Source: Chthoniobacterales bacterium (GTDB lineage: Bacteria > Verrucomicrobiota > Verrucomicrobiia > Chthoniobacterales > Chthoniobacteraceae). Taken from it: DNA of 64,000 nt. The notes beneath the pieces were generated by a model, which saw only the letters and a list, made by a program, of their open reading frames with translations, searched no databases and had not been told where the DNA came from. Where the stretch lies: positions 32,001 to 96,000 of the forward strand of contig JBBQZX010000015.1 in the NCBI GenBank assembly GCA_038207335.1. The letters are read 5' to 3'. Made by a program: the position numbers and the translations under genes. Of the stretch, positions 3,670 through 21,401 are shown piece by piece. The stretch's first letter is position 1, and the number at the start of each line of letters is the position of its first letter.

Positions 3670-3980
3670 CCCGCATTTTCGCGCAGGAAATGCCAGATAC
3701 AGTGGATTCTAAGCATCATTGATCGAATCGTGATGCACTTCGCACGCTTTCAAGACGTTTCGCGCGGTCGTTTTCTGTCACGGTCTGTCACGCCGTTCTA
3801 TCGATCACGGCGGAGTTCGCTCGATGGCCAGACGCCAGATGCCGCGGAGGTCGTGGAGGATTTCGCGGCGTGGTGGCGGATCGAGAGGAGACTGAAGCAA
3901 CAGAAGCCAAAGAATGCAGTACCTTTCCGGTCGTGCTCTGCACATACGTTGCTCCCTTGCAGATCCCGCTCTCAATCTTG

Positions 3981-6344
3981 ATGTTCTTTTCGCTCGCTGC
4001 CTTGTGTGGGCATACGAGCAGTGCCCGTGCGGAGGCTCCTCCGCCGACGGTGCGGGCCGTTTTTGAGCAGCACTGCGTGAAGTGTCACAGCGGGGAGAAG
4101 CCCAAGGGCGACATGACGCTTGAGCCGCTGCTGGAGGGGCACGGCGAACTCAAGCTGTGGCAGGACGCGCTGGAAAAAATCGAGACCGGCGAGATGCCGC
4201 CGAAGTCCAAGCCGCGCCCAGCGCCGGAGCAAAAGCGCGCCGCCGCGGATTGGCTGACGGGACTGGTGCTCGCGGAAAAGGCGGCGCATCGCGCAAAGGA
4301 AGGCCGTGTGGTGCTGCGACGGCTGAACCGGGTTGAGTATGAAAACACGCTGCGAGACTTGCTCGGCGTGGAAGTACGGGTGCGTGCGTTGTTGCCGGAG
4401 GATTCGTCCGCAGGTGGTTTCGACAATGTGGGCGAGGCGCTGCACTCCTCGTCTTTCCTGCTCGCGCGCTATCTCGATGCGGCGGCGGAAGCACTCGACC
4501 AGGCCATCGCCAGCGTGCCGCAGCCGGTAGCGAAAAAGGAGCGCATCACGCTGCGCGATGCGTATCAGTTCAAGCAGGACACCGAGCACGCGTTCCGCAA
4601 ACGCGACGATGGCCGGATCACGATGTTTTCCTCGTCGCAATGGCAGGCGGCGACGCTGTTCTGGCTGGAGCGGCGCGGGCGTTACCGGTTCCGGATGTCG
4701 GTGCAGGCGGATCAGAGCGGTGGCAAGCCGGTCGTCTTCAGCGCTGACACAGGCGGCGGCAGCGATGGGCCGAAGTCGGTACTCGCGGGCTATTTCGACG
4801 CCCCTGCGGATGCGCCGAAGGTGATCGAATTCGAGGCGTTTATGGAGCCGCGGATGTCGATGACAATCCGTCCGTATGGACTCGCGGTCGCGCAGGAGAT
4901 CGCCAAGGCCGGCGACAGGTGGACCGGCCCCGGACTGGCGGTGGACTGGGTGGAAATGGAAGGGCCGCTGAACGACACTTGGCCGCCCGCGAGCCACGAG
5001 CGGCTTTTTGCCGGGCTGAAACAGGCGCCCGTGAAAGTGTCCGGCGCAAACGACATTCTCGAAGTGCAGCCGAACGAATCTGCTGCCGACGCACGGCGCA
5101 TCATTGCGGCTTTTGCGAGGCGGGCTTTTCGGCGACCTGTGAGCGACGAGGAACTTGCGCCGTTCACGGCGCTGGTGGCGAAGCGTCAGGCGGATGGCTC
5201 GACATTCGAGCAGGCGGTGCGCGCGGGGCTCGCGGCGGTCATGACCTCACCGGAGTTCCTCTTCCTCTGCGAGACGCCCGGACGGCTCGACGACTTCGCG
5301 GTCGCGAGCAGGCTGTCGTATTTTCTGTGGAGTTCCATGCCGGATGAGGAGCTGCTGTCGCTCGCGGAAAAGGGAAAGCTGCACGACCCGGCAACGCTGC
5401 GCGCGCAGGTGGACCGGCTGTTGCAAAGCCCGAAGGCCGCAGCCTTCACCGAGAACTTCACCGGACAGTGGCTGCGGCTGCGCGAGATCGATTTCACCGA
5501 GCCGAGCGGCCAGCTTTACCCTGAGTTCGACGACATGCTGAAGGCCTCGATGGTTCGGGAGGCGCGGCTGTTCTTCGACGAGTTGCTCCGCCGCGATTTG
5601 CCGGTCACCAATTTCCTCGCGTCGGATTTCTCGATGCTCAACGGCCGACTCGCCAGGCACTACGGCATCCCCGGCGTGGACGGCTGGACGTTCCAGCGCG
5701 TAAGCCTCCCGCTCGAAAGCCACCGCGGCGGTCTGCTCACCATGGCGGCGGTTTTGAAAGTCACCGCCAACGGCACGAATACCTCGCCCGTGATGCGCGG
5801 CGCGTGGGTCCTCGACCGCATCTTCGGCAGGCCGCCGAAACCACCACCGCCAGACGCGGGTAGCATCGAGCCCGACATCCGCGGCGCCACGACGATTCGC
5901 GAGCAGCTCGCCAAGCACCGCCGCGTCGAATCCTGCGCGAGCTGCCACTCCAAGATCGACCCTCCGGGTTTCGCGCTGGAGAACTTCGACGTCATCGGCG
6001 GCTGGCGCGAATTCTACCGCAGCACCGGCAACGGCAAGCCCGTGGAGATCGATGGAAAGAAGATGCGCTACCTGCAGGGGCCGCCGGTGGACGCGACCGG
6101 CGAGATGCCCGACGGGCGGAAGTTTTCCGACGTCGATGGACTCAAAAAGCTCCTCCTCGCCGACACCGACACTTTCGCCCGCGCGCTCACGATCCGCCTG
6201 CTCACCTACGGCACCGGCGGACTCGTCGAGGCCACCGACCAGCGCGAAGTCAGCGCCATCCTCGACAAGGCGAAATCCGCGCAATGGGGCTTCCGCTCCC
6301 TCCTCCACGAAATCGTCCAGAGCCGTCTCTTCCTCGAAAAGTAA
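3981..6344 (+). CDS. Planctomycete/PVC-type cytochrome c protein (DUF1587/1595/1592/1588/1585 architecture)
   Basis: CVKCH and CASCH haem motifs; LRRLNRVEYENTLRDLLG; ASRLSYFLWSSMPD; TSPVMRGAWVL; start codon uncertain. Confidence 0.88.
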   Translation: MFFSLAALCGHTSSARAEAPPPTVRAVFEQHCVKCHSGEKPKGDMTLEPLLEGHGELKLWQDALEKIETGEMPPKSKPRPAPEQKRAAADWLTGLVLAEKAAHRAKEGRVVLRRLNRVEYENTLRDLLGVEVRVRALLPEDSSAGGFDNVGEALHSSSFLLARYLDAAAEALDQAIASVPQPVAKKERITLRDAYQFKQDTEHAFRKRDDGRITMFSSSQWQAATLFWLERRGRYRFRMSVQADQSGGKPVVFSADTGGGSDGPKSVLAGYFDAPADAPKVIEFEAFMEPRMSMTIRPYGLAVAQEIAKAGDRWTGPGLAVDWVEMEGPLNDTWPPASHERLFAGLKQAPVKVSGANDILEVQPNESAADARRIIAAFARRAFRRPVSDEELAPFTALVAKRQADGSTFEQAVRAGLAAVMTSPEFLFLCETPGRLDDFAVASRLSYFLWSSMPDEELLSLAEKGKLHDPATLRAQVDRLLQSPKAAAFTENFTGQWLRLREIDFTEPSGQLYPEFDDMLKASMVREARLFFDELLRRDLPVTNFLASDFSMLNGRLARHYGIPGVDGWTFQRVSLPLESHRGGLLTMAAVLKVTANGTNTSPVMRGAWVLDRIFGRPPKPPPPDAGSIEPDIRGATTIREQLAKHRRVESCASCHSKIDPPGFALENFDVIGGWREFYRSTGNGKPVEIDGKKMRYLQGPPVDATGEMPDGRKFSDVDGLKKLLLADTDTFARALTIRLLTYGTGGLVEATDQREVSAILDKAKSAQWGFRSLLHEIVQSRLFLEK

Positions 6345-6350
6345 ATCCCC

Positions 6351-7619
6351 ATGAACACTCCCCTCACCCGCCGCCACTTCCTCCGCTCCGCCGGCATCCT
6401 CCTGGCGCTGCCCACGCTCGAGTCCCTGCAGTCCCGCGCATTCGCCGCCGGCAATACGCCGCCGCCGCGCCGCATGGTCTGCATTTGCGCCCCGCTCGGG
6501 CTGCACGCGCCCGATTTTTTCCCGGAGAAAATGGGCCGCGACTACCAGCCCTCCATGTATCTCGAAACGCTCGGCGACCTCCGCCGGGACTGCACCGTCA
6601 TCTCCGGGCTCGCGCACCCGGGCATTGGCTCCACGCACGACTCGCAGGACAGCTTCCTCACCGCCGCGCTGCACCCGGAGAACCGCGCGGGCTTTCGCAA
6701 CAGCATCTCACTCGACCAGCTTGCAGCGGAGAAAATCGGCGACCGCACCCGCTTCGCCAGCATCGCGCTCGCGGCGGAGGGGTCCAGTCTTTCGTGGACG
6801 CGCAGCGGCGCGATGGTGCCCGCGGACGTGTTTCCCGCGTCCGTGTTCGCGCGGCTTTTCCTCCAGGGCAAACCGGACGAAGTCCAGAAGCAGGCGCGCC
6901 GGCTGGAGGACGGCCTCAGCATTCTCGACACCGTCCGCGACCAGGCGAAGCGGCTCGACTCCACCCTCGGCACGCGCGACCGCGAGAAGATCGACGAGTA
7001 TTTCACCAGCGTGCGCGAGCTCGAGCAACGCATGGCCGTCGCGCGCGAATGGTCCACGAAACCCAAGCCCCACGTCGATGTCCCGCCGATCCAGAACAAC
7101 ACCAACCCCGCCGACCTGATCGGCAAGACGCGGCTCATGCTCGAGCTCATCCACCTCGCCATCCAGACCGACTCCACGCGGCTCATCACCCTGCTCCTGC
7201 TCGGCACCAGCCAGGTGCCGCCCATCGAGGGCGTCACGCAGGGCCACCACGACCTTTCACACCACGGCCAGGACCCCGGGAAAATCGCGCAGCTCCGCAG
7301 GGTCGAGCTCGAGTTGGTAAAAGCGCACGGCGAATTCCTCACGAAACTCAAGCAAACCCGCGAGCAGGACGGCTCCCTGCTCGACCACTCCATGATCCTT
7401 TTCGGAAGCAACCTCGGCAACGCCTCCAACCACTCCACGAAGAACCTCCCCTTCCTCCTCGCCGGCGGCGGCTTCAAGCACGGCCAGCACCTCGCCTTCA
7501 ACGCCGACGAACCCCCGCCCGTCTCAAATCTCTACGTCAGCATGCTCCAGCGCCTCGGCATCGAGACCGACAAATTCGCCACCAGCACCGGCACCCTCAG
7601 CGGCCTGGACGCGGCCTAG
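6351..7619 (+). CDS. DUF1552 family protein with Tat-like N-terminus
   Basis: TRRHFLRSAG..LALPTLESL; SISLDQLAA; HHDLSHH; LLDHSMILFGS; usual partner of DUF1592 proteins. Confidence 0.88.
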   Translation: MNTPLTRRHFLRSAGILLALPTLESLQSRAFAAGNTPPPRRMVCICAPLGLHAPDFFPEKMGRDYQPSMYLETLGDLRRDCTVISGLAHPGIGSTHDSQDSFLTAALHPENRAGFRNSISLDQLAAEKIGDRTRFASIALAAEGSSLSWTRSGAMVPADVFPASVFARLFLQGKPDEVQKQARRLEDGLSILDTVRDQAKRLDSTLGTRDREKIDEYFTSVRELEQRMAVAREWSTKPKPHVDVPPIQNNTNPADLIGKTRLMLELIHLAIQTDSTRLITLLLLGTSQVPPIEGVTQGHHDLSHHGQDPGKIAQLRRVELELVKAHGEFLTKLKQTREQDGSLLDHSMILFGSNLGNASNHSTKNLPFLLAGGGFKHGQHLAFNADEPPPVSNLYVSMLQRLGIETDKFATSTGTLSGLDAA

Positions 7620-7849
7620 CCGAATCCGAGCGGGGGCAGCCCCTCCCGGCGCATCCCCGCTCCAGCCGCCGCCGTCTCACGGTGGGAAAAAATAGCGCCG
7701 CCACGATACTCACCATTGCGCCGAATTGGCTCGAATCGCGGCTGTTCCCCGCGTGCGCACAGCACCTGCCGGCTGACCGAGGCAAAACGTCCCTCCGAGC
7801 AGCATGTCCGCGCGTAAGTCGTTGATCTAAGATGGATTGCAGAAAAATA

Positions 7850-7975
7850 ATCGATGACCTACCACCCTCCACCGACACCTCACCAGCCTCCACCGACACC
7901 CTCCCACCCATTACCGACGCCTTACCAACCAGCATCGACGCCCTACCACCGGCCACCAGCGCCAGCCCAAATGCC
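7850..7975. repeat. Six degenerate tandem 21-bp repeats
   Basis: Units at 7850, 7871, 7892, 7913, 7934, 7955; consensus about AYCGACRCCCTACCACCNNCC. Confidence 0.8.
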
Positions 7976-8043
7976 ACCGTGCTTCGGCTTCTCCAGAGCG
8001 AGCGTCATCTCGGAGGGTTGTGCGAATCGGGCACGGGCGGGTC

Positions 8044-8405
8044 TTAGAAGCCGTGCACCGGTTGATGCTGGGCTATTGTTTCCGCTTTCGGGGCGCGCTT
8101 GTAAGTCGCGTCGAGTGCCACGGCGGGCGGGCCCTGGACCTGCCGGCCATCGAGGAGGTGCTCCACGGTGAAAAATCTGCAGCCGCGGATACTGCCGGTT
8201 CTGCTTGCTCTCGTAAAAGCCCGCGTCCGCGTCCAAAGGACTTGATTCGGCTAACCGCCGCCATGCCGTCCTTTTCCTGAAAGAGAAGGCGTTGTAGGTC
8301 TGCGCCTATCTATTGAATGGCGGATCGATAGACCAGATCCACGGAGGCGTCCGGGAGGTAGCGGCGGAGGATGTCGAGATTGTCGCCGCAGTAGAGGGTG
8401 CCCAT
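8044..8405 (-). pseudogene. Internally deleted, frameshifted remnant of an N4/N6 DNA methyltransferase (probably fused to an Mrr-like nuclease)
   Basis: MGTLYCGDNLDILRRYLPDASVDLVY/DPPFN..QTYN..QEKDG joined across frameshifts to DAGFYES..YPRLQI/TVEHLLDGR...DATYKRAPKA..stop. Confidence 0.8.
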
Positions 8406-8564
8406 GGCGCGACTTTGCCAACCGCCCCCCGCCCCGACAAGCGCGCGGCTGCCCGTGGCGGGGCGCCGGGCTTGTTTATTTCGTTGCAGCCCTGCGCTGG
8501 GTCGGATGCACTGGCCGCCGCTTCGAGTCCAGGTCTCACAACCACTCCTCTACTTCGACCCAAT

Positions 8565-9323
8565 ATGTTCCGAGCCATCAAACGTCTCTTCATTTACCTC
8601 GGCTTGCTCGCGGAGAAAGCCACCGAGAACGACGCGATCAATCAAGCCGTCGTCGAGCGCGGCATCCGCGATGCGAAAGCCAAGGCGGACAAGGCGCACT
8701 ACGCCAACGGGCAGCTCGCTAGCCAGATCGCGCTGCTCAAGGATCAGGTGAAACGCCAGACGCGGCAGCGCGAGGAATTGGCCGGGATGCTGCAAGCCGC
8801 CGCCGCCGCGAATGACGACGCGAACGGCGCGCATTACGCCGAGGAACTCGCGACGATGGACACCGACATCGCGGACAACGAAGCGCAGCTCAAGAGCCTC
8901 GAAGAACTCTACGAGCAGAACACGCAGGTCATCGCGCAGAGCCTCCGGGAGATTCAGAAATTCCAGCGCGAATTCGAGACGGTGAAGGCGAAGGTCGCGG
9001 TCGGGCGTTCGCTCGAAAATCTCGCGGGGCTGATGAAAGGCTCGATCGTGGAGTTGCAAGGGATGATGGGCAGCGAGCTTTCGCAATCGATGCAGCAGCT
9101 CCGCCAGAGCGCCTCGGTCGGCGAGGGTCAGATGCGCGCGACTTTCGATCTGGCAAAGGAAATGGGCTCGAACGTGCAGCGTCAGCAGGAGATGAAAAAG
9201 GCCCGCGGCGCCGCGCTCTTCCAGGAATACAAAAAGAAGATGGGCATGGTGCAGAGCGACACCGCAGCAGCGCCCGCGCAGCCTGCGCCCGCCACTGAGC
9301 AACGGCAGAAGATCGCCGAATAA
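8565..9323 (+). CDS. PspA/IM30 (ESCRT-III superfamily) protein
   Basis: 252 aa, all-helical; amphipathic N-terminus MFRAIKRLFIYLG; long coiled-coil hairpin; C-terminal ALFQEYKKKMG helix. Confidence 0.75.
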   Translation: MFRAIKRLFIYLGLLAEKATENDAINQAVVERGIRDAKAKADKAHYANGQLASQIALLKDQVKRQTRQREELAGMLQAAAAANDDANGAHYAEELATMDTDIADNEAQLKSLEELYEQNTQVIAQSLREIQKFQREFETVKAKVAVGRSLENLAGLMKGSIVELQGMMGSELSQSMQQLRQSASVGEGQMRATFDLAKEMGSNVQRQQEMKKARGAALFQEYKKKMGMVQSDTAAAPAQPAPATEQRQKIAE

Positions 9324-9369
9324 CGCCACCCTTCTCGCCCGCTAAAAACCCTACCAACTCCACACTGCC

Positions 9370-11106
9370 ATGACCTCACTCGGTAAGTTTGTTCTCACGC
9401 TGCTCGTCCTCGCCGCGGTCGGATTCGGCATCTTCCGCTGGTGGGATAAAATCGCGCCCGCCTCCGATCCGCACGCCACTTCGATCAACACCGCTGCGGT
9501 AAAAGAAGAACTCGCGAAGAAGCCCGACGCAAACCCGGACGTGACGAGCAAATTGCTCGCGGGCGACAAAGCCGTCTCGCTGGTCGATGGCTCGGCGATC
9601 CCGGCCGTTGCAGGCGTGAGCGACTACGACAAGACGATGAAGGACGGCAAATTCGTCGTCGAATTTCCGATCAACGTCTGGCCCGGCTGGGCGCCGATCA
9701 TCGTCGCGAATAACGGCATGGAGCCGAACGAAGGGAGCGTCTTTTTCAAGAAATACGGCTTCTACGTGAAACTCTCGATCGTCGATGACCCGGTGAAGGC
9801 GCGCGATCTTTTCGCGAGCGGACACAGCCACGTTTTGTGGGGCACGCTCGACATGATGTCGCTCTTCGCGTCGGAGCTGGCGAAGGATTCGCGCACCGTC
9901 CCGGTGGTCTGCCAGCAGATCGACTGGTCCGCCGGCGGCGACGGCATCGTGGCGCGCAACGACATTCGCTCGATCAATGATTTCCACGCGAAGAACGGCA
10001 AGCGCCGCAAGGTCGTCCTCGCGCAAAATTCTCCGAGCCACTACTTCATCATGTCGCTGCTCATCGACGCCGGGATCGATCCGGCGGAGGTCGATTTCCG
10101 CTGGGCGGGCGACGCGCCGGCGGCGGCGAAAATCTTCGTGCAGGACAAATCCTTCGACGCGTTCGTCGGCTGGTCGCCCGACATTTACACCGTCTCCGAT
10201 TCGGTGAAAGACACGCGCCTCGTGCTCAGCACCGGCAGCGCGAACCGCCTCATCGCCGATGTGTGGGCGGTGCGGAACGACTTTTACCGCGACCATCCGG
10301 ACATCGTCGGCAACCTCGCGCGCGGCATTTTCACGGGCATGGACATGGTGCGGAAGGACGTGCCCGGCGCGGCGAAATTGCTCTCCGCGGCGTTCAGCAT
10401 TCCCGTCGAAGATTGCACGAACATGATCGGCAAGGACGGCGGCGTGGCGACTGGCGACGCGCATCTCACTAACTACCGCGAGAACGTGAATTTCTTCCTC
10501 GACCCGTCGAATCCGTCGAATTTTGAAGTCGTCTGGAATCGCGCGACGACGATCTACAAATCGCTCGGCGCGATCACCAATCCCGTCGCCGCCGCGAAAG
10601 TGAAAGCCGCGCAGCTCCTCGCGAAGATGTCCGAGGAATACAAGGACGTGCGCGACATGTCGCAGGCGACGTTCCGCCCCGGCGCAATCTTCAAAAGCGC
10701 GGAAGCCGAGAGCGGCGAGATCCTGACCAAGTCGGTGATCATCACCTTCCCGCCGAACAAGACGACCATCGACGCCGCCTACGACGCCGGAATCCCGCAG
10801 GTGATGGAGGAAATCGGGAAGCTCGCGGGTGCCTTTGGGAATGCCTACATCGTCGTCGAGGGCAACACCGACGCGACGCGCAAAGGCATCGTGCCGCCGG
10901 ACCTCGTGCGGCAGCTCAGCTACGATCGCGCGGACTCTGTGCGCCGCGCGATTTTGGAGAAATACAAATTCGATCCGAACAAGTTCAAAGTCATCGGCAA
11001 CGGCTGGGACAATCCGGTTCAAGGAATGACCGACGCGAGCAACCTCGAGCACAACAAGAAGAACCGCCGCGTCGAGGTGAAGGTCTTCCCTCTCGAGAAA
11101 GAGTAG
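9370..11106 (+). CDS. NMT1/TauA-like ABC substrate-binding protein fused to a C-terminal OmpA peptidoglycan-binding domain
   Basis: N-terminal TM anchor; INVWPGWAP, IDWSAGGDGIVAR, WSPD, IADVWAVR; OmpA motifs VEGNTD, LSYDRADSV, NRRVEVKV. Confidence 0.85.
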   Translation: MTSLGKFVLTLLVLAAVGFGIFRWWDKIAPASDPHATSINTAAVKEELAKKPDANPDVTSKLLAGDKAVSLVDGSAIPAVAGVSDYDKTMKDGKFVVEFPINVWPGWAPIIVANNGMEPNEGSVFFKKYGFYVKLSIVDDPVKARDLFASGHSHVLWGTLDMMSLFASELAKDSRTVPVVCQQIDWSAGGDGIVARNDIRSINDFHAKNGKRRKVVLAQNSPSHYFIMSLLIDAGIDPAEVDFRWAGDAPAAAKIFVQDKSFDAFVGWSPDIYTVSDSVKDTRLVLSTGSANRLIADVWAVRNDFYRDHPDIVGNLARGIFTGMDMVRKDVPGAAKLLSAAFSIPVEDCTNMIGKDGGVATGDAHLTNYRENVNFFLDPSNPSNFEVVWNRATTIYKSLGAITNPVAAAKVKAAQLLAKMSEEYKDVRDMSQATFRPGAIFKSAEAESGEILTKSVIITFPPNKTTIDAAYDAGIPQVMEEIGKLAGAFGNAYIVVEGNTDATRKGIVPPDLVRQLSYDRADSVRRAILEKYKFDPNKFKVIGNGWDNPVQGMTDASNLEHNKKNRRVEVKVFPLEKE

Positions 11107-11130
11107 CGCTCACCGGGTTTTCACCCCCCG

Positions 11131-11991
11131 ATGACCGGCTTCTTCATCTTCGCGATTAGCTTCGCGCTGCTGCTCACCGCCGTCGTCCGCTTCGGCCGGC
11201 TTTCCGTGCGCCGCGAACTCTCGAACACCGTAGGCACGGTGCTCACGATTTCCTTTATCGCGCTCGTCTTCCTCGCGTGGTGGGCATGCACGCGGGGCGC
11301 GCGCATCGAGGACCGCGTCCTCTCGCCGATCATCCTGCCCAGCCCGATGGAAGTGCTTCACGCCTTTCCGAAACTGCACTTCGAGCAGGAGCTTGTCCGC
11401 AGCGCGCTGCGCTCGTTTCAGCGCGTGACCATCGGCTTCACGCTCGCCGCGATCGTGGCCGTGCCGCTGGGTGTTTACATGGCCAGCTTCGCGACGATCT
11501 CCGCGTTTTTCCGCCCGCTCGCTCTCGTCGGCGGATACGTCCCGATCGTCGTATTCATCCCGCTCACGCTCGCGTGGTTCGGGCTCGGCGAAGCGCAGAA
11601 AATCGGCTTCCTTTTCATCGGCTGTTTCGTCGCGCTACTGCCGCTCGTCATCCGCGCCATCGGCGACGTTCCGCGCGCGTTTCTGGATGTCGCCGTGACG
11701 AAAGGCGCGACGCAATGGCAGCTCGTCCGCCACGTTTTGTTCCCCGTCGCGCAGGCGGAGATTTGGGAGAATCTGCGCGCCGTCTATGGCGTCGGCTGGG
11801 GCTGGATCATCCTCGCCGAAGTCGTCAACGCGCAGACCGGACTCGGATACCTCATCTCCGTCTCCGAGCGCCGTGGGCACACCAACGCCATCTTCGCGAT
11901 CATCGTCGTCATCGTCACCATCGCCGTTGCTTGCGACCAGCTCTGGCGTCTCGGTGCGCGCCTCCTTTTCCCGTACAAATTTCGCGCCTGA
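11131..11991 (+). CDS. NitT/TauT-family ABC transporter permease
   Basis: ILPSPMEV, YVPIVVFIPLTLAWFGLGEAQK, EAA-like loop DVAVTKGATQWQL, WGWIILAEVV. Confidence 0.9.
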   Translation: MTGFFIFAISFALLLTAVVRFGRLSVRRELSNTVGTVLTISFIALVFLAWWACTRGARIEDRVLSPIILPSPMEVLHAFPKLHFEQELVRSALRSFQRVTIGFTLAAIVAVPLGVYMASFATISAFFRPLALVGGYVPIVVFIPLTLAWFGLGEAQKIGFLFIGCFVALLPLVIRAIGDVPRAFLDVAVTKGATQWQLVRHVLFPVAQAEIWENLRAVYGVGWGWIILAEVVNAQTGLGYLISVSERRGHTNAIFAIIVVIVTIAVACDQLWRLGARLLFPYKFRA

Positions 11992-11994
11992 CCG

Positions 11995-12945
11995 ATGCCC
12001 GACGACGCCCCCAAACCAAGCGCCGAAGCCGTTCCGGCGCACCCGACCACGATCACGCCCGCCGAGATCGGTCACGCCGAGCACCCGAATCCCGCCGCGG
12101 AAATCGGCCTCCCCGAGGTCGTCACTTTCCGCAGCGTCACGAAGACTTTCGGCGAAGGCGCCGACGCCAAAGTCGCGGTCCAGGACGTCTCCTTCATCGT
12201 CCACGACCTGCCAGGAATCGGCGAACTCGTCTGCATCGTCGGCCCGTCAGGTTGCGGAAAGTCCACCGTCCTTCGCCTCATCGCCGGCCTGCAGCCGCAG
12301 TTCCCTCCCACCAGTGGCGAAGCCCTCGTCTTCGGCAAACCCATCGCCGGCCCGAGCGCCGATCGCGGCGTCGTCGATCAAAAATATTCGCTGCTGCCGC
12401 ACCTCACCGTCGCAGAAAATATCGCCTTCGGGCTGCGCCTCCGCGGCACGCCGGCCAAGGAACGGCGGGCCCTCGCGAACGAGTGGGCCAAGAAAGTCGG
12501 CCTCGAAAACTGCGAGCAGAAATATCCCTCCGAGCTTTCCGGCGGCATGCAGCAGCGCGTCGCCATCGCCGCCACGCTCATCCTGCGCCCGCGCATCCTC
12601 CTGATGGATGAACCCTTCGGCGCGCTCGATCCGAAGACCCGTCTCCGCATGCAGGAACTTCTCGTCGAGCTCTGGAAAGAGCAGGACAGCACCGTCTTTT
12701 TCGTCACGCATTCCGTGGAGGAAGCGGTCTATCTCGGCGATCGCGTCTTCCGCATGGCTGCCAATCCCGGACGGCTCGTCGAGGAGTTGAAAGTCGAGCG
12801 CCCCGACGAGTCCCTCGAAGACATGCGGCAGCGCCCGTGGTTCGGCGAACTCACCCAAGAGCTCCTTCGTCGCCTCGAACAAGACGCGCTCGCGTCGGGA
12901 GCCTTGCGTGGATCGCGGAAGGTGCCGCATCTTCACGCGCGCTGA
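11995..12945 (+). CDS. NitT/TauT-family ABC transporter ATP-binding protein
   Basis: GPSGCGKST, LSGGMQQRVAIA, LLMDEPFGALD, FVTHSVEEA. Confidence 0.93.
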   Translation: MPDDAPKPSAEAVPAHPTTITPAEIGHAEHPNPAAEIGLPEVVTFRSVTKTFGEGADAKVAVQDVSFIVHDLPGIGELVCIVGPSGCGKSTVLRLIAGLQPQFPPTSGEALVFGKPIAGPSADRGVVDQKYSLLPHLTVAENIAFGLRLRGTPAKERRALANEWAKKVGLENCEQKYPSELSGGMQQRVAIAATLILRPRILLMDEPFGALDPKTRLRMQELLVELWKEQDSTVFFVTHSVEEAVYLGDRVFRMAANPGRLVEELKVERPDESLEDMRQRPWFGELTQELLRRLEQDALASGALRGSRKVPHLHAR

Positions 12946-13886
12946 TGGATCACGACGAGCCGAGTTATCACCTCGAGTTTTTGAAAAGCCGCCTGCACGG
13001 CTGGGTCGGCTTGCTCACTCTCGGCACGGGCTTCGTCACTGGCCACGCGCTGCCGCTGATCGTCGGCGCGACAGCCTACTCGCTCGCGTGGATTTATCTG
13101 CCGGACCTGCCGTTCTTCCGCGGCTCTGTGGATCGTCGCCGAGCCGAAGCGCGCGCGGCGGAGGAGCAGGCGAAAGTCATGGAATTCACACGCCGCCGGG
13201 ACGCCGTTCTCGGCGCCCTCGCGCCCGAGCGCCTCGCCCGCTACCAGGCGCTCGCCGAAGTCTGCCAGAGCATCGAAGCCGCCAGTGCCGAGACCGCGCC
13301 CGCCGATGCGGACCCGCGTCTCCGCAAGCTCGACGAGCTGATGTGGACTTATCTCCGGCTCCTCTCGATCGAGGAATCGCTCGAGCGTTTCGTCGAAACC
13401 GAACGCCGCGAACGCGTCCCGGAACTGACCAAACAAGCCGAGGCCGAAGTCACGCAACTCGGCACCGAACTCGAAGCCGCCAAAGCCGCCGGCGAAAAGA
13501 ACATCGACGGCCGCCAGCGCTTCCTCGCCTCTCGGATGGAGCGCCTCGACGTTCTCCACAAGCGCCTCGAACGCTCGGTGCAGGCGCAGGAAAATCTCGC
13601 TCTCGTCGTCGCCGAGGAAGAGCGCCTCGACCAGCAGATCAAGCTCATCCGCGCCGACGCCGTCGCCTCGCGCAATGCCGGCGCGCTCACGGCGCGCATC
13701 GATGCCACCGTCCAGAATCTCGACGAGACGAACAAGTGGCTCTCGCAGATGGACGAGTTCAAAGACCTCGTCGGCGACATGCCAGCGACCGACCTGCGCG
13801 TCGGCTTCCGACCCGTCACCCTCCCGCCGCCAATCACCGGCGCCCGCCCGGCCACACCCCGCCGCAATCGCACGCCCGCTTCGTAG
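12945..13886 (+). CDS. Membrane-anchored coiled-coil protein of unknown function
   Basis: ATG overlaps upstream TGA (TGATG); two N-terminal hydrophobic helices then long E/R/L/A-rich heptads. Confidence 0.78.
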   Translation: MDHDEPSYHLEFLKSRLHGWVGLLTLGTGFVTGHALPLIVGATAYSLAWIYLPDLPFFRGSVDRRRAEARAAEEQAKVMEFTRRRDAVLGALAPERLARYQALAEVCQSIEAASAETAPADADPRLRKLDELMWTYLRLLSIEESLERFVETERRERVPELTKQAEAEVTQLGTELEAAKAAGEKNIDGRQRFLASRMERLDVLHKRLERSVQAQENLALVVAEEERLDQQIKLIRADAVASRNAGALTARIDATVQNLDETNKWLSQMDEFKDLVGDMPATDLRVGFRPVTLPPPITGARPATPRRNRTPAS

Positions 13887-13932
13887 CGCGGGCTGGCAGC
13901 ACGCGCCACGGCAGGCTAGAAGCCTTGATACA
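13883..13932. repeat. Degenerate GTAG-type REP pair within the operon
   Basis: GTAGCGCGGGCTGGCAGCACGCG ... GCAGGCTAGAAGCCTTGATACA; each arm is an imperfect palindrome. Confidence 0.4.
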
Positions 13933-15695
13933 TGACCGACTCCCCTCCCCGTCTTCCCCTTCGCGGGTGGGCGCTCGAACTCGCGCGCCGCTGGAATTCC
14001 GCGAGCTACTCCCTCTTCATCCTCCACGGCAATATCTTCGACGTCTTCCCCGTGCAGGACGGCGCGGATCTCGCCTACGTTTCGCTCAAGAGCTTCCTCG
14101 CGCGCCGCATTTTTCCCGACCGCGCCTTCCTCCTTTTCTACGACATCAGCGAGGGCCTCACCTTCTCCACCGCCGAGATGCAGCGGCGGTTCTTCGAGTG
14201 GCTCGAGGTCTTCGATTCGGTGGAAAGCACCAGCTTCCGCGTGCAGGGTCCGCCCCGCGAATTCACGCGCCTCGCGCCGCTGCTGCGACGCTTCTTTCTC
14301 CACGCCGCGGAGAGCAGCGGCAGCGTCACACTCGTCGTCGATTTTCCCGAAAAGATCATCCCCGAGTCACCTGATTCCGGCTCGAGCGCGGAGGAGCGCA
14401 TCGCCCTCGTCACGCTCTTGAAATGGGCCGGCTCCACCGAGCTCCGCCAGCACGATGTCGGCGTGCTGCTCGTCACCGAAAGCGCTGCCAAACTCGCCGG
14501 CGACCTCCTGCAAAATCCGCACACCGCACAGATCAAGATTGAGCTGCCCGGCGCGGAGGAACGCCTTCGCTTTCTCGAATCGAAGACGCTCGGCGAAGTC
14601 GCCCATGGTTCGCCGATCAAGGACTGGAGCGACTTCCCGGCCGACGAACTCGCCAATCGCCTCTCCGGGTTGAACCTCACGCGCATCCAGCACCTCCTCG
14701 CGGAAGCCGTCCGCAACGGCGCTCGCGTCACCGCCGATCACGTCGGCCGCGGGAAGAAACGCCTCATCGAGGAATACTGCCAGGGCCTCGTCCGCTTCAA
14801 GAATCCCAAGCCCGGCATGAACCTTGACGCCGTCGCAGGCCACAAGCCCGCGAAGGCCCGCCTGCGCGAACTCGCGTGGCTCATCGCCAACGGCAAACGC
14901 GACGTGCTCGAGCGCGGCGTCCTGCTTCCCGGCCGCGTCGGCGTCGGCAAATCCTTCCTCGTCGATTGCTTCGCCAGCGAGTGCGGCCTGCCGATGATGG
15001 AGCTCGGCGAGTTCCGCTCGAAATGTGTCGGCGACACCGAGCTGCAGCAGGGGCGCATCCTCATGACGATTCGCGCGCTCGGCCCCGTCATCGTCGTCGT
15101 GGACGAGGCCGACGCCGTCTTCGGCACGCGCGAGGGCGACGGCGACAGCGGGGTCTCGGGGCGCGTCTTCGCCGCCTTCGCCGCGCATCTCGGCGACGCC
15201 ACGCTGCGCGGTCGCGAGCTGTGGATCGCCATGACCTCGCGCCCTGACCTGCTCGCGATCGATATGAAACGACAGGGCCGCTTCGGCCTCTGCATCCCGC
15301 TCTTTCCCGCGCAGGGCCCCGACGACGTCGTCGAGCAATTCACCGCCATCTCTGCTTTCAAAAAGATCACCCTCACCGATCCGATGCTCGCCTTCATCCG
15401 CGAGACGCTCGGCGCGCGGCCCCTCACTGGCAGCGACGTGGATGCCATCCTCACCCGGGCCAAGGAACGCGCCGTCCTTGCCGGCAGGGATGCCACCTTG
15501 GAAGTCCCCGACCTCGAGACCGCCGTCAATTCCTTCATCGACCCACTCGACCCCCAGCTCTTGGAACTCCAGGAACTCGCCGCCATCCTCGCCTGCTCCG
15601 ACCGCCGCTACCTCCCCGACGCCATCCGCGACGCCGACCGCACCGCCTTGGCAGAGCACCTCCGCACCCTGAAGGCGCACCTCCGCGCGCGTTAG
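13932..15695 (+). CDS. AAA+ ATPase (degenerate N-terminal module plus one intact classical AAA module)
   Basis: Walker A GRVGVGKS, Walker B VVVDEAD, sensor MTSRPD, Arg finger KRQGRF. Confidence 0.9.
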   Translation: MTDSPPRLPLRGWALELARRWNSASYSLFILHGNIFDVFPVQDGADLAYVSLKSFLARRIFPDRAFLLFYDISEGLTFSTAEMQRRFFEWLEVFDSVESTSFRVQGPPREFTRLAPLLRRFFLHAAESSGSVTLVVDFPEKIIPESPDSGSSAEERIALVTLLKWAGSTELRQHDVGVLLVTESAAKLAGDLLQNPHTAQIKIELPGAEERLRFLESKTLGEVAHGSPIKDWSDFPADELANRLSGLNLTRIQHLLAEAVRNGARVTADHVGRGKKRLIEEYCQGLVRFKNPKPGMNLDAVAGHKPAKARLRELAWLIANGKRDVLERGVLLPGRVGVGKSFLVDCFASECGLPMMELGEFRSKCVGDTELQQGRILMTIRALGPVIVVVDEADAVFGTREGDGDSGVSGRVFAAFAAHLGDATLRGRELWIAMTSRPDLLAIDMKRQGRFGLCIPLFPAQGPDDVVEQFTAISAFKKITLTDPMLAFIRETLGARPLTGSDVDAILTRAKERAVLAGRDATLEVPDLETAVNSFIDPLDPQLLELQELAAILACSDRRYLPDAIRDADRTALAEHLRTLKAHLRAR

Positions 15696-15733
15696 AACTC
15701 TAGTTACAGCTCCGACAGCATTCCTATTATTAC

Positions 15734-16399
15734 GTGCTCATACCTTACAGCGTCAATACGCTAACCATTCGTTCCCCTTGGGCTAATCTGAGTCTTCTGG
15801 CACTCAATCTCGTCTGCTTTGGGTTTCTCCTAGCTGGTGCAATTCCTGATGAATGGGTGGAAAAGCTCGTCCTCTTCGATTGGTCCCCGCTCGGGCTTAT
15901 CGGTCACCAGTTTCTCCATGTCGGCTTCGGTCATCTCATTGGAAATATAATCTTCCTTTGGGTCTTCGGTAATGCCTTGAACGGCGTCATGCATCACTGT
16001 GAATACCTCCTTGCTTACCTCGGTTGCGGACTCTTCGCCGCGGTCGTTCATCTTCTCGTCGATGGCTCTCCCGCCGTCGGCGCAAGCGGCGCCATCTCCG
16101 GCCTTCTTGGCCTTTACCTCGCCGTTTATCCAAAGAACGAGATCACTTGCTTTTACTGGTTCTTCCGTCCCGGCAGCTTTGAGATCAAGGGCTACATCCT
16201 GATCATCGGATGGTTTGCGTGGGATCTTTACACCGCCATCCATGGCTCCGATGACATTGCCGCGTGGGCCCACGTCGGGGGCACTCTCGCCGGCTTCGGC
16301 ATTGGCATCTTCCTCCTTAAACTCCAGCGCATCTACCTCGGCGAATACGACAACCCAAGCATTCTCAACCTCCTTCCGTCTCGCGCCCCGGCCGCATGA
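15734..16399 (+). CDS. Rhomboid intramembrane serine protease
   Basis: FLHVGFGHLIGN, GASGA catalytic Ser, AWAHVGG catalytic His; GTG start. Confidence 0.9.
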   Translation: MLIPYSVNTLTIRSPWANLSLLALNLVCFGFLLAGAIPDEWVEKLVLFDWSPLGLIGHQFLHVGFGHLIGNIIFLWVFGNALNGVMHHCEYLLAYLGCGLFAAVVHLLVDGSPAVGASGAISGLLGLYLAVYPKNEITCFYWFFRPGSFEIKGYILIIGWFAWDLYTAIHGSDDIAAWAHVGGTLAGFGIGIFLLKLQRIYLGEYDNPSILNLLPSRAPAA

Positions 16400-16442
16400 C
16401 GATGCTGACGCTCCTTCTTCGCCGCATCGCGGTAAAATAATA

Positions 16443-17360
16443 TCAGTCCTCGCGATTTGGCACGGCTTGGTCGCTGAGTTGCATTTTGATCTCGTAGCGG
16501 GCGGCGCAGAGGCAGCCGCCGAGGATGATGATGGCGCCGGAGAGGTAGATCCACATGAGGAGCGCGATGACGCTGCCAAAGGTGCCGTAGAGTTTGTTGA
16601 AGTTTGCGAAATTCTGGATGTAGAGCGCGAAGCCCCACTGCACGAGGCCGAGGCCGACGGTCACAATGAGCGAGGCGAGCCAGACCTCGCGGAATGTCGT
16701 GCGGCGGCGCGGCGCATATTTATAAAACATGGTGAAGCCGTAGTAGAGCACCACTGGAGAGACGAGCAGCCGCAGGATGCGGAATACCTCCGCCATCCAT
16801 TTGAAGTCGAGCCCGACCTGCCAGGAGTTTTTCCAGTAGAGGTCGCGGATTTGATCGACCACCGCCGGGAGCACGATGCCGAAGAAGAGGGCGCTCGCGA
16901 GGATGGCGACCATGAGGAGGTTTTTAATCGGGAGGCGCCACCAAGAGTATTCCTTCGTCCCCCACGCGCGGTTCACACCGTGGACGAGGCTCTGGAAAAA
17001 GCGGAGGGAGCTCCAGGCGAGGACGCCGAATGCAATAAAGCCGGCCTGGCTGCGGGATTTCAGGGCGCCATTGATCGTGCTGACGAGGGACTCGCCGACT
17101 TCCACGCTGTCGGGGAGGTAGTGGGTCAGCTGCTCGGTGATCGTGTCGGAGGCGGCCTGCTGATTTCCGAGGAACATGGAGCCGAGAGTGATGAGGAGCA
17201 CGAGCAGCGGGAAGAGCGCGAAGAAGGCGTAGTAGGCGAACGATGCGGCGCGCTGTTCGCCGTCGGTCTCGTCGTATTTCCTGATCGCGCGCCAGAGCAC
17301 GGCCCACGTGTTTTTGGCAAACGCGCGCAGGGGCGGCGGGATGCGATTCAGGGCGTTCAT
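16443..17360 (-). CDS. yihY: YihY/BrkB family membrane protein
   Basis: AASFAYYAFFALFPLL; VNRAWG; YGTFGSVIALLMWIYLS. Confidence 0.88.
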   Translation of the reverse strand: MNALNRIPPPLRAFAKNTWAVLWRAIRKYDETDGEQRAASFAYYAFFALFPLLVLLITLGSMFLGNQQAASDTITEQLTHYLPDSVEVGESLVSTINGALKSRSQAGFIAFGVLAWSSLRFFQSLVHGVNRAWGTKEYSWWRLPIKNLLMVAILASALFFGIVLPAVVDQIRDLYWKNSWQVGLDFKWMAEVFRILRLLVSPVVLYYGFTMFYKYAPRRRTTFREVWLASLIVTVGLGLVQWGFALYIQNFANFNKLYGTFGSVIALLMWIYLSGAIIILGGCLCAARYEIKMQLSDQAVPNRED

Positions 17361-17435
17361 CGGTGCGACCGTAGGCAGCGTGCCCGACGCTGCCAATGTT
17401 GCAGGCGTGCCGGGAGCGATTAGCCTACGCCGCCA

Positions 17436-20400
17436 ATGCCGGACACCGCGGAGCCCGCTCCCACTCCCCAACCACCGAAACCGCACCGCCGCTGGCTGCG
17501 GCGCACGCTGTGGTCGCTGCTCGCGATTTTCCTCCTCGTCGCGATTTTTCATCGTCCGCTTTTCCACGCCGTCGTGCGGCTCGTGGTCATCAAAGTCGCG
17601 GCACGGCAGCACCTCACGGTCGATCTGCATTTCTCCGGCAGCATCTTTACGAATCTCGCAGTCGATGGGGTCCGCGCGCGTCCAAATGGCAGCGGGCCGT
17701 CGCCGGTGGATCGCATCGACATCGAGCATATCCGGCTCGACTACAGCCTCATCGCGCTGGCCAAGAAAGGCGTCGGGGAATTTCTGCAGAGCTACGAAAT
17801 CAAAAACGCCGATCTCGTTTTCACGGCCCAGCCCAGCAAGGACGAGAAGGAGAAAGCGCAGAAGAAATCGCTCGCGCAGGACCTGAACAACCTCCTCGCG
17901 CAGCCCGCCGCTTACGCCGACCGCGTGCGCATCGACAACTTCAACATCATCCTCCACTCCGCAAAGGGCGACATCGCGGTGAAGGGCATCGACATCCTGC
18001 TCGACCCGGAGAAGACGGGCTTTTTCAAAGTGGCGCGCGTGGAGGTGCCGGGGGTGCCGGTGTGGGAAAATCTCGCCGCGGAGACGAGCTACGTTGGGCG
18101 GAATCTTTACATCCGCGGGCTCCAGCTCGCGCCGGAGGTCGTGCTGGATGAGGTGAATTTCGACGCGTCGCAGCGCGCGCAAAACAAGGGGAGCACCTCG
18201 CTGCACGCGCATGTCTTCGGCGGCACGCTGGCGCTCGCGTTGTCCGGCTCCGAGCTGAAAAAGAAGGGCAAAAATCTCGACCGGAGCTACGACACGCACC
18301 TGACCGTGGAAGCTGCGGATATGTCGGTCGCGGATGCTGCGGCGTATTTCAAAACGCCGCCGGTGCCGGTGGAAAAGCTGGCGAAATTGTCGGTGAGTTT
18401 CGCCGGTGAACCGGAGTCGCCGAAGACGTGGGATGGCGGAGCGACTGTGCGCGTCGAGGGCATCAAGGCGGGGCCGCTACTGGTCGATTCGTTCTCGACG
18501 AATGCGACTTTCAAGAACGGAAAAGCCGAGCTGACGGCGGGCAATGTGACGATCGGGAGGAACACGGTCGCGCTCACCGCGACCGCCGCGCTGCCGGAGT
18601 CGGTGAACGACTTTCCGCAGAGCGGGGTGGAGGCAAATGTGAAGGTCGACGCGCCCGATCTCGCCGCGCTGACGGGCACAATGCCGGAGCCGCTCGCGGG
18701 CTCGGCGACTGGCGATGGGAAAGTTTCCTACGAGAAAAAGCACGTCACCGCGGACATCTCGCTCGCAGCGAAGGGCGTCGAGAACAAGCAGCTCGGCGTG
18801 GGCACGGCGGCGGTGCATTTCGACGGCTCGACGACGCTCGGTGAGGCGGCGAACGACGCGATCAAGAACCTCGACGGGCACATCACTGCCGACCTGTCGA
18901 AGCTGCGCTTTCAGACATTCAACGCCGACTCCGCGAGCCTCGACGTCCTCGCGCACGAGAGCGTCGTCACTTTGAAAAAGGTCGCGCTCCTGCGGTCGGA
19001 AAACTCCGTGTGGGCGAGCGGCACGTATCGCGTGCCGGAGGATTTGAGCAAGGCCGCGGCGGCACCGGTTGATGCACAGTTTTCGATCAAGGTGCCGAAG
19101 CTCGAGGACTTCGGAATCGCGGTGAAAGACAAGACCGTGAGCGGGCATCTCGACGGCGACGGCGCGGTGAAGATGGTGGATGGAAATCCGAGCGGAAATG
19201 TGCGGGTCGAGGGCGGGGATTTTACGATCGGCGACTTCAAGACGGGGCCGCTCGTGATCAAGGCTGCGGTCGCGGACAACGTGGCGACGATCGAGCAGAT
19301 CACGCTGAATTTCAGCCCGACGGCGACCATCGCGGTGTCGGGAAAGGCGGGCGTGAAGGCTCCGTTTTTGTATGAAGGCGGCGCGGCGGTGAGCATCGAG
19401 AACCTCTCGGTTTTCCAGCCGCTGCTCGACGTCTTCGGGATCAAGGAACCAGTGAAAGGTGCGGTGCAAATCGACTGGAACGGAAAAGGCGAAGCGCCGG
19501 AGAACAAGGATGCCACACCATCCGCGGACCACAGCGGCGACGTGAGCATCGCGGTGACGAAGGCCGGTTACGGAAAGTTCGACCTGAACGAGTTCAAACT
19601 CGCGGGCATTTACGGGCCGGGCTTCGCGCAGTCGTCGGAGTTCAAAGTTGTGGTCGGCCCGACGAACTTCAACGCGGCGCTGGAGCTAAAGGAAGGGAAG
19701 CTGCGGCTGCGCGACATCGCGCTCGCGCAAGGCACGCTCACGGTGCTCACCGGCTTCATCATCGTGCCGATCGACCTGAACAATCTCTCGCAGCCCGTGC
19801 CGCTCGATCAGCGGCTCGCAGTGAACGTGAACACGAAAGATTTGGACATCGAGCAACTGCTCAAGAGCTTCGGCCAGACCGCACCGGTTAGCGGCGTGGT
19901 GACGGCAAATTTCCTCGCGGGCGGCACGGCGCTCCAGCCAACGGCGCACGTCAAAATCACGGGGCGCAAATTGAAGTCGAGCGCAGCACCGCAGTTCGAC
20001 GCGGCGGAACTCGATCTCGCGCTCCACTACTCGCAAAAGGAACTCACGCTCGACACGACCGTGCGCCAGCCGCTCATCCAGCCGCTCACGATCAAGGGCC
20101 GCGTCCCGCTCGACATCGAAGCCGTCGTGGAGGCAAAGAAGATCGACCCAAATCTGCCGATCGACGTGAGCGTGAAGCTGCCGCCGACCTCCCTGGCAGT
20201 CGTGCCGAAACTCGCGCCAGCGGTGCGCCGGATCGATGGAAATGTAAGCATCGATGTCCACGCCGGGGGCACCGTTGGGAAGCCGGAATTGAGCGGCTCC
20301 GCGAACGTGAAAATCACGTCTGCGCGGCTCGCGAATGAAGCCGTGCCCGCCATCGGAGGGTTTCAGGCGGACCTCGGATTCGCGGCAGACACGCTCACTT

Positions 20401-21401
20401 TCAAGACCTTCCGCGGTGAGATCGGTGGCGGCACTTTCAATCTCGGCGGCACGCTGAAATTTCCAAAAATCGCCGAGCCCGACTTCGACCTGAAGCTGAC
20501 CGCGAAAGACGTGCTCGCGGTGCGCAATGACTCGGTGACAGTGCGCGCCGACACCGATTTGAAACTCGTCGGCCCACTCGCGGCGGCGACGGCAAGCGGC
20601 ACCGTCTTCATCACGAACAGCAAGTTCTTCCGCGACATCGACATCCTGCCGATCAGCCTGCCCGGACGTCCGAAGCCGAAGCTCAATCCGCGCTCCGCCC
20701 CGAGCGGCAAAAACATCTCTTTCGACAAGCCGCCGCTGCGCGACTGGAAGTTCGACATCGATATTAAGACGAAGAATAACGACCCATTTCGCATCCGCGG
20801 AAATCTCGCCAACGGCGCTGCCGCGGTGGATCTAAAATTCGCGGGAACCGGCCTGGAGCCTTACTTGGAGGGCAGCGTGCGGGTGGACGATTTCGTAGCG
20901 TCGTTGCCGTTTAGCAAACTCACGGTCACGCGCGGCTTCATCTATTTTAAAAAGGACGCGCCGTTCGAGCCGGTGCTCGATTTGCAGGCGGAGGCGAATA
21001 TGCGCGACTACCGCATCCAAGCTTACATCTCGGGCAGTGCGACCGACCCGCAGGTCACGCTGACGAGCGAGCCGCCCCTCGCGCAGGCGGACATCGTCTC
21101 GCTGCTCGCGACTGGCGCGACCGCATCGGAGCTGACCGGAAATCCCGACGTGCTCGCGGGCCGCGCGGTGGTGCTCGTCTTCCAGCAGCTCTACCGGAAG
21201 ATTTTCAAGAAGAAGGAACCGTCGGAGGAGGAGTCGCTGTTCGACCGATTCAGCTTTGACGTCGGCGCGACCGATACGCAGACCGGGCGGCAGGAAGTGA
21301 AGGCGACATTTAAGCTCGGCGAGCAGCTTTACCTCGTCGGCGAGATCGACGTGACGGGCGGCTTCACGGGTCGCGTGAAATATTTGCTGCGATACCGATG
21401 A
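17436..21401 (+). CDS. tamB: TamB / DUF490 translocation and assembly module protein
   Basis: 1321 aa with N-terminal TM and repetitive beta-taco-like sequence; C-terminal SEPPLAQADIVSLLATG. Confidence 0.85.
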   Translation: MPDTAEPAPTPQPPKPHRRWLRRTLWSLLAIFLLVAIFHRPLFHAVVRLVVIKVAARQHLTVDLHFSGSIFTNLAVDGVRARPNGSGPSPVDRIDIEHIRLDYSLIALAKKGVGEFLQSYEIKNADLVFTAQPSKDEKEKAQKKSLAQDLNNLLAQPAAYADRVRIDNFNIILHSAKGDIAVKGIDILLDPEKTGFFKVARVEVPGVPVWENLAAETSYVGRNLYIRGLQLAPEVVLDEVNFDASQRAQNKGSTSLHAHVFGGTLALALSGSELKKKGKNLDRSYDTHLTVEAADMSVADAAAYFKTPPVPVEKLAKLSVSFAGEPESPKTWDGGATVRVEGIKAGPLLVDSFSTNATFKNGKAELTAGNVTIGRNTVALTATAALPESVNDFPQSGVEANVKVDAPDLAALTGTMPEPLAGSATGDGKVSYEKKHVTADISLAAKGVENKQLGVGTAAVHFDGSTTLGEAANDAIKNLDGHITADLSKLRFQTFNADSASLDVLAHESVVTLKKVALLRSENSVWASGTYRVPEDLSKAAAAPVDAQFSIKVPKLEDFGIAVKDKTVSGHLDGDGAVKMVDGNPSGNVRVEGGDFTIGDFKTGPLVIKAAVADNVATIEQITLNFSPTATIAVSGKAGVKAPFLYEGGAAVSIENLSVFQPLLDVFGIKEPVKGAVQIDWNGKGEAPENKDATPSADHSGDVSIAVTKAGYGKFDLNEFKLAGIYGPGFAQSSEFKVVVGPTNFNAALELKEGKLRLRDIALAQGTLTVLTGFIIVPIDLNNLSQPVPLDQRLAVNVNTKDLDIEQLLKSFGQTAPVSGVVTANFLAGGTALQPTAHVKITGRKLKSSAAPQFDAAELDLALHYSQKELTLDTTVRQPLIQPLTIKGRVPLDIEAVVEAKKIDPNLPIDVSVKLPPTSLAVVPKLAPAVRRIDGNVSIDVHAGGTVGKPELSGSANVKITSARLANEAVPAIGGFQADLGFAADTLTFKTFRGEIGGGTFNLGGTLKFPKIAEPDFDLKLTAKDVLAVRNDSVTVRADTDLKLVGPLAAATASGTVFITNSKFFRDIDILPISLPGRPKPKLNPRSAPSGKNISFDKPPLRDWKFDIDIKTKNNDPFRIRGNLANGAAAVDLKFAGTGLEPYLEGSVRVDDFVASLPFSKLTVTRGFIYFKKDAPFEPVLDLQAEANMRDYRIQAYISGSATDPQVTLTSEPPLAQADIVSLLATGATASELTGNPDVLAGRAVVLVFQQLYRKIFKKKEPSEEESLFDRFSFDVGATDTQTGRQEVKATFKLGEQLYLVGEIDVTGGFTGRVKYLLRYR

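Follow-up and report, generated by a model that had tools for sequence, protein, structure and literature searches.

A PspA-AAA+ operon with a wall-tethered binding protein in a Chthoniobacterales bacterium: a further example of an operon type known in silico and a likely envelope-repair module

The closest described counterpart of the locus reported here is an operon identified in silico by Ravi et al. (2024; PMC11237479, Table S3, OGG56892.1), which has the same six genes in identical order and for which the relevant passages of that paper propose a function in ATP-dependent membrane remodelling linked to transport. In the contexts given in the part of Table S3 concerned, actinobacterial ClgR-PspA-PspM loci have no AAA, ABC or OmpA gene; PspM, in the part of a 2026 preprint that deals with it (10.64898/2026.09.09.750162), retains a PspA species at the mycobacterial membrane. 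A 2025 review (PMC7619361) states, in the section concerned, that a Vps4-like ATPase is apparently absent in bacteria, which leaves the question of how PspA polymers are taken apart. Here, we describe a locus of the Ravi type in a Chthoniobacterales bacterium (assembly GCA_038207335.1, contig JBBQZX010000015.1). The DNA analysed is a stretch of 64,000 nt (32,001-96,000 of the contig), called the window below, and all positions follow its numbering. Seven uninterrupted open reading frames (ORFs) lie on the + strand between 8565 and 16399, with intergenic gaps of 46, 24, 3, -1, 45 and 38 bp; an earlier note on this DNA had described seven co-directional genes with gaps under 50 bp or overlaps, and its coordinates, gaps and domain calls hold. 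The seven genes are:

8565-9323, + strand: gene 1, PspA/Vipp1 protein (ESCRT-III superfamily), 252 aa, assigned by profile, fold and relatives
9370-11106, + strand: gene 2, anchor, Tau/Ssu/NMT1-type periplasmic binding domain and OmpA-like peptidoglycan-binding domain, type I, 578 aa (PF00691, models)
11131-11991, + strand: gene 3, TauC/SsuC-type ABC importer permease, 286 aa, accessory (PF00528, E 4e-15; TauC/SaoP models below cut-off)
11995-12945, + strand: gene 4, TauB/SsuB-type ABC ATPase, 316 aa, accessory (PF00005, E 9e-29; taurine/nitrate ABC ATPase models)
12945-13886, + strand: gene 5, all-helical protein, 313 aa (model), at the position of the SIG+TM+Snf7 gene of Ravi et al.
13932-15695, + strand: gene 6, AAA+ ATPase, 587 aa (PF00004 at residues 330-452)
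15734-16399, + strand: gene 7, rhomboid protease, 221 aa (PF01694, E 5e-27)

Genes 1-6 are best read as a member of the PspA/binding-protein-OmpA/ABC/membrane coiled-coil/tandem-AAA operon type that is likely to be an envelope-repair module, a reading to which we give a probability of about 0.55. Its basis is the fold, the motifs and the co-occurrence observed, and every interaction and activity that it includes is what we infer.

Gene 1 encodes a divergent PspA/ESCRT-III protein. The Pfam model PspA_IM30 (PF04012) gave E 0.016 and 15.3 bits, below the gathering cut-off of 33.9, so that the search which the earlier note had suggested for 8565-9323 failed on the side of the family model and succeeded on that of fold and relatives, which are Vipp1/PspA. 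Since PF04012 has no match in the host genome at E<=0.01, the model misses gene 1 itself; a relative 41% identical to it (P0253) clears the cut-off with 34.4 bits, and so do six of 22 scanned relatives. The first profile of gene 1, made from close relatives only, found nothing in the PDB, and the wider one (A3) matched Vipp1/PspA at E 5e-8. With the gene 1 structural model as query, the first 11 ranks in Foldseek were all occupied by Vipp1 entries (best E 3.1e-4). These results bear out the assignment of the first ORF to PspA with an ESCRT-III fold. The model, which has a predicted local distance difference test (pLDDT) score of 74.6 and is weak after about residue 160, places helices at residues 2-18, 23-81, 85-166 and 172-225, and the predicted layout is an N-terminal helix, a long hairpin, another helix, a variable flexible linker and a conserved short basic tail. 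Helix 0, the helix 1-2/3 hairpin and the further helices agree with Vipp1/PspA structures, with the same low confidence after residue ~160. Across families, the identity of this protein is mostly 65-92%. The conserved tail, encoded at 9255-9323, lies in the low-confidence region of the model and is a candidate docking site.

Close relatives of the locus were found in Chthoniobacteraceae and other Verrucomicrobiota. Genes 1-6 make up a cluster that is conserved in bacteria: among 33 genome loci with the AAA gene, 18 contained all six genes in order; one had a four-gene form, three were cut by a contig end, two retained gene 5 and the AAA gene only, and in nine the AAA gene stood alone. Fourteen AAA loci had no PspA gene beside them and, in all ten of these that were tested, PspA was present elsewhere in the genome. 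In five genomes with scattered genes, gene 5 was found in four and the binding protein in four, with no orthologous permease. When 201 genomes of the phylum were sampled, the AAA gene was detected in six, gene 5 in six and the PspA clade in five, always in the same genomes, the sixth having a more distant PspA. PspA, gene 5 and the AAA protein therefore travel together, linked or not, as the earlier note had expected of the coiled-coil and AAA genes. Because gene 1 has the ESCRT-III fold and these two genes co-occur with it, neither of the outcomes which that note had named as speaking against its module, a first ORF of another fold or a lack of co-occurrence, was observed.

What stays constant in the operon type is PspA together with the membrane coiled-coil protein and the AAA protein; in addition, there is usually a binding protein tethered by OmpA, and a secreted protein with a vWA domain. 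In 59 of the 83 loci with enough room (29 more were too short), PspA is immediately preceded by the vWA gene, as in L012:1827-2597 and L014:2000-2737. At our locus, the 945-bp upstream gap contained no vWA remnant, and no vWA orthologue was found in the 94.7%-complete genome (best E 1.4e-5). Three further arrangements were seen among the related loci. In four Verrucomicrobiaceae-type genomes (G201-G204; loci L024, L032, L039, L041 and L055-L058), PspA, binding protein, gene 5 and AAA are all present, on different contigs. A minimal form, PspA-gene 5-AAA with no binding protein in between, occurs at L073:8101-12708 and L114:8980-12762. A 91-kb contig filed as viral (L068, IMGVR_UViG_3300029288_000125), which may be host DNA, carries the full vWA-PspA-binding protein-permease-ABC-gene 5-AAA operon.

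The C-terminal half of gene 6 is a classical AAA module with Walker A (residues 333-341), Walker B (387-392), R447/R450 and pore loop 1, and these motifs are conserved; the N-terminal half is also conserved and, judging from its sequence, is without the Walker A lysine. The best models and structures were of the Cdc48/VAT/Afg2 type, with E 5e-13 for Cdc48/VAT as compared to 8e-5 for CdvC. None of 41 AAA members matched MIT or Vps4_C (Pfam, E<=0.01) and, since the MIT domain is missing, gene 6 is not a Vps4, so that the Vps4 identity considered in the earlier note has to be given up. Complex prediction with the AAA protein (587 aa) and residues 56-300 of gene 5 gave a score of 0.00 in two runs, which is evidence neither way.

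An aromatic pore loop is a mark of polypeptide-threading AAA motors. The tryptophan of pore loop 1 was present in 36 of 37 aligned AAA proteins, the window alone having cysteine, and in 12 of 13 further loci with an AAA match, the thirteenth of which ends before the motif. The codon concerned is:

15024-15026, + strand: pore-loop-1 codon, Cys in the window as compared to Trp in the family (run contigs)

Contigs from one public run (X1) span 7600-12560 with 0 differences and 12605-16500 with one difference; X1 may be the window's own source, and the comparison is thus a check of the consensus and not independent support. Since 12605-16500 is covered in this way, the adjacency of the AAA and rhomboid genes is no chimera of this assembly. 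None of the runs listed as containing the locus was of RNA. At position 15026, every covering X1 contig has the base that makes the codon Trp, with a depth of 24.9 out of 24.9, and a second run (X2) has it too. As the run with the locus thus shows the Trp codon in its contigs, the cysteine is likely to be a single-base assembly error, or else a strain difference. By its sequence, then, the AAA family keeps a translocase-type pore loop, and the C-terminal catalytic module encoded in the window is intact.

A conserved helical protein, gene 5, holds the slot before the AAA gene, where the operon of Ravi et al. has a gene labelled as a membrane-anchored, divergent Snf7. One search gave 1621 relatives, and the protein belongs to no Pfam family. 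Its model (pLDDT 89.8) consists of two N-terminal helices, a bundle of three helices with a long hairpin (124-182/187-277) and a low-confidence tail, and a conserved motif follows the helix at about residues 270-287. This post-helix motif, at about 13750-13805 of the window, lies in a low-confidence modelled region and is a candidate docking site. As to what gene 5 is, either a divergent Snf7, according to the published label, or a PspM-like anchor may be considered. Its nearest named Atlas clusters were those of Rv2743c/PspM (PF25587), with a score of 0.87 and 181 shared features (0.82 for the cytosolic part), and we treat this likeness as a weak lead.

If gene 5 were instead an ESCRT-III subunit of the Snf7-like kind, anchored in the membrane and polymerising together with PspA, a composite filament would be what the AAA protein remodels. 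The label SIG+TM+Snf7 given to the same position in the table of Ravi et al. (PMC11237479), the long helical hairpin of the model and the appearance of Vipp1 among the Foldseek rows are all in favour of this. However, Vipp1 appeared at rank 27 and below, with E of at least 0.57 and TM-scores of 0.19-0.33, although the like search with gene 1 gave it ranks 1-11, and the gene 5 model lacks helices beyond the hairpin. The fold searches gave no significant match, their results being helical bundles of a generic kind (best Z 10.6); the wide search listed no ESCRT-III chain within its top 50, an outcome with which membership of the family is compatible. In addition, neither Snf7 nor PspA_IM30 was among the 25 commonest of the 43 Pfam families found over 138 gene 5 members, and the profiles of genes 1 and 5 failed to align (probability 0.5%, with shallow profiles). 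The Snf7 label was thus not reproduced, by Pfam or by fold, and we consider a composite filament unlikely, even if it is the strongest of the alternatives.

Gene 2 starts with a hydrophobic segment (residues 4-22) and contains an OmpA domain (PF00691, E 1.6e-8); its binding domain matched NCBIfam models of the SsuA/TauA type with E 3e-7 to 5e-6, below their cut-off, and its PDB matches were Omp38 and TauA. Two types of binding protein were distinguished by their identity to gene 2, which is at least 67% in type I and 26-29% in type II. The N-terminal anchor residues are common to both types, and both keep D501, S517, R520 and A521, of which we take D501 and R520 to be the peptidoglycan-binding residues of the OmpA domain. 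Type-II-like binding-protein-OmpA genes without a match to the conserved N-terminal anchor, and without core neighbours, were seen at L150, L151 and L152.

The two types differ in what follows them. Considering full-length genes with at least 1.5 kb downstream, a permease gene came directly after the type-I binding protein in 29 of 29 cases and after the type-II protein in none of 15; the ABC-free variant with a type-II binding-protein-OmpA gene was found at L008, L009, L010, L044, L104, L113 and L134. In four type-II genomes, including one that consists of a single contig, no orthologous permease was detected, none exceeding 36% identity: the best permease in genomes without an orthologue was 28-36% identical, as compared to 57-88% for orthologues. 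Since type-II genes have no adjacent permease and four such genomes have no orthologue of it, the ABC genes are dispensable, and the transporter pair is an optional part of the operon type and not the obligatory one assumed in the earlier note.

The same observations bear on the possibility that the main job of the locus is solute import, with PspA, gene 5 and the AAA protein assembling, protecting or turning over a wall-tethered ABC importer. A complete Tau/Ssu-type importer does stand in the middle of the operon, with a 3-bp and an overlapping junction, and the permease invariably follows type-I binding proteins; but the core is kept at high identity in genomes that have no orthologous permease, and the two loci of the minimal form hold the core without the binding protein. 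We therefore regard import as a doubtful main function, slightly behind the composite filament.

Returning to envelope repair, the events may be pictured as follows. PspA would polymerise on the stressed inner membrane, where gene 5 would anchor or nucleate the polymer, and the dedicated AAA protein would unfold and recycle PspA by threading. The OmpA-tethered binding protein would span from the wall to the inner membrane and act as a sensor or as a positioning anchor, and in its type-I form it would probably also supply the ABC importer with a small solute, anionic or polar. The non-catalytic N-terminal half of the AAA protein could select the substrate, perhaps via PspA's conserved tail or via the conserved motif that follows the helix in gene 5. 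Part of the support for this picture comes by analogy from the weak PspM likeness of gene 5, PspM being the protein that, in the preprint part mentioned above, holds PspA at the membrane. A more specific and clearly more tentative version would be an ESCRT-III machine of bacteria that has independently recruited a Cdc48-like disassembly motor of its own: the wall-tethered binding-protein-OmpA sensor, transport-free in type II, and the secreted vWA partner would signal strain between wall and membrane or a ligand in the periplasm, PspA would be nucleated by a PspM-like membrane anchor, and the tandem AAA protein would thread PspA by its conserved tail, as a convergent counterpart of Vps4.

Several points weigh against the envelope-repair reading. 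The hydropathy scan of gene 5 stayed under its threshold of 1.6, and for this reason the membrane insertion of its N-terminal helices, likely as it is, is a feature that we infer. The PF25587 hidden Markov model (HMM) was silent at gene 5 in six genomes carrying gene 5, and the PspM likeness is below 0.9. The review PMC7619361 notes, in the section concerned, reported nucleotide turnover by PspA/Vipp1 themselves, so that an external motor is not obviously needed. The loci compared are mostly from Verrucomicrobiota and, being related, are not independent. One genome (G205, completeness figure not stated) contained PspA and AAA, but gene 5 and the binding protein were not found in it, and the three genomes with type-II-like binding proteins at L150, L151 and L152 had no core genes detected. 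Finally, a literature search, from which subscription journals were mostly outside coverage, found no experiment on any operon member.

A role in defence against phages or toxins, which the earlier note had also raised, is improbable. The patchy distribution (5-6 of 201 genomes), the copy on the IMG/VR contig L068 and a weak match to the NCBIfam model IteA (E 4e-5) would fit it. PADLOC, however, returned no match for six of the seven proteins and generic ATPase matches only for the ABC subunit; PspA is highly conserved across families, GC3 (the GC content at third codon positions) is host-like, the downstream neighbours are mostly housekeeping genes, and the AAA protein had no match on plasmids at E<=1e-20.

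The rhomboid, one of four in the host genome, is likely to be a neighbour and not an operon member. No rhomboid was present in any of the 38 loci compared for gene order, and a co-directional downstream copy was found in none of the 44 related loci with at least 900 bp beyond the AAA gene (three more were too short). Opposite-strand rhomboids, 26-34% identical to gene 7, flank the operon at L088:16457-17104, L117:16273-16965 and L104:254-679, probably by chance, with a weak association possible. The 41 ORFs scanned downstream of related operons belonged to unrelated families, mostly housekeeping, with a single opposite-strand rhomboid among them. GC3 was 0.79-0.86 in genes 1-6 and 0.64 in gene 7, which is preceded by a weak promoter-like site of its own; such sites numbered four in the 9-kb region, as compared to 1.1 expected. 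Because of the 0/44 count, the deviating GC3 and this site, the rhomboid is best read as a neighbour, and the proposal that it works as a seventh member and cleaves the gene 2 or gene 5 anchor, for which its co-directional position after a 38-bp gap and the three flanking copies might be cited, is very improbable on the same grounds. The remaining features of the region are:

15703-15730, + strand: promoter-like site before the rhomboid gene, weak, consensus match only (9/12)
3870-7619, + strand: PSD/PSCyt and DUF1552 pair, ordinary upstream flank
16443-17363, - strand: YihY/BrkB membrane protein, ordinary downstream flank
17436-21401, + strand: TamB, ordinary downstream flank

In the upstream gap (7620-8564), a low-complexity stretch rich in C is found near 7855-7970, and the sequence at 7822-7851 resembles a promoter. 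Rfam gave no match in 7400-16600, and terminator-like sites in the region were at chance level (11 found as compared to 9.2 expected).

Compared with the proteobacterial PspFABC system, the locus shares PspA as an effector for envelope stress. As the earlier note had stated, none of the seven ORFs matches PspB, PspC or PspF; the genome-wide search for these three was not made. Gene 6 also differs in kind from PspF, which activates transcription and is of the NtrC type. With actinobacterial ClgR-PspA-PspM (Rv2743c), it has in common a PspA and a membrane-linked helical partner, but gene 5 has no HMM support as PspM and there is no ClgR-type regulator among the seven ORFs. With archaeal and eukaryotic ESCRT-III and Vps4 (CdvB/CdvC), it shares an ESCRT-III-fold protein and a classical AAA protein with an aromatic pore loop, whereas here gene 1 is of the PspA/Vipp1 type and the ATPase is without MIT or Vps4_C and has a non-catalytic N-terminal half. 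By analogy, gene 6 may work like Vps4 though it is not Vps4.

The resemblance to the operon of Ravi et al. is the closest. Genes 1-6 agree with it in architecture and order, with no sequence alignment to OGG56892.1 behind the match, and looking up the clusters of 10 distant PspA relatives brought neither accessions nor informative names, and hence no sequence link to that entry. In both, a PspA-family gene comes first, followed by a protein with a signal or anchor, a binding domain and OmpA, then the permease and the ABC ATPase; the published operon has two AAA modules, the N-terminal of which is inactive, and ours has an active-type C-terminal module and an N-terminal half without the Walker A lysine. 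The earlier note's suspicion that related neighbourhoods appear in Psp surveys is thus confirmed, gene for gene, by the part of Table S3 concerned (PMC11237479). The relevant passages and table of that paper are silent on the upstream vWA gene and on the split between ABC-linked and ABC-free binding proteins found here. Both the idea and the gene order are therefore already in print; the operon type is known in silico and this locus is a further member of it. What the locus adds is a test object, since the operon type offers a defined PspA-AAA pair for testing PspA disassembly in vitro, together with three refinements to the published description: the ABC pair can be missing, the rhomboid in all likelihood does not belong to the operon type, and gene 5 may be either a Snf7 or a PspM-like protein.

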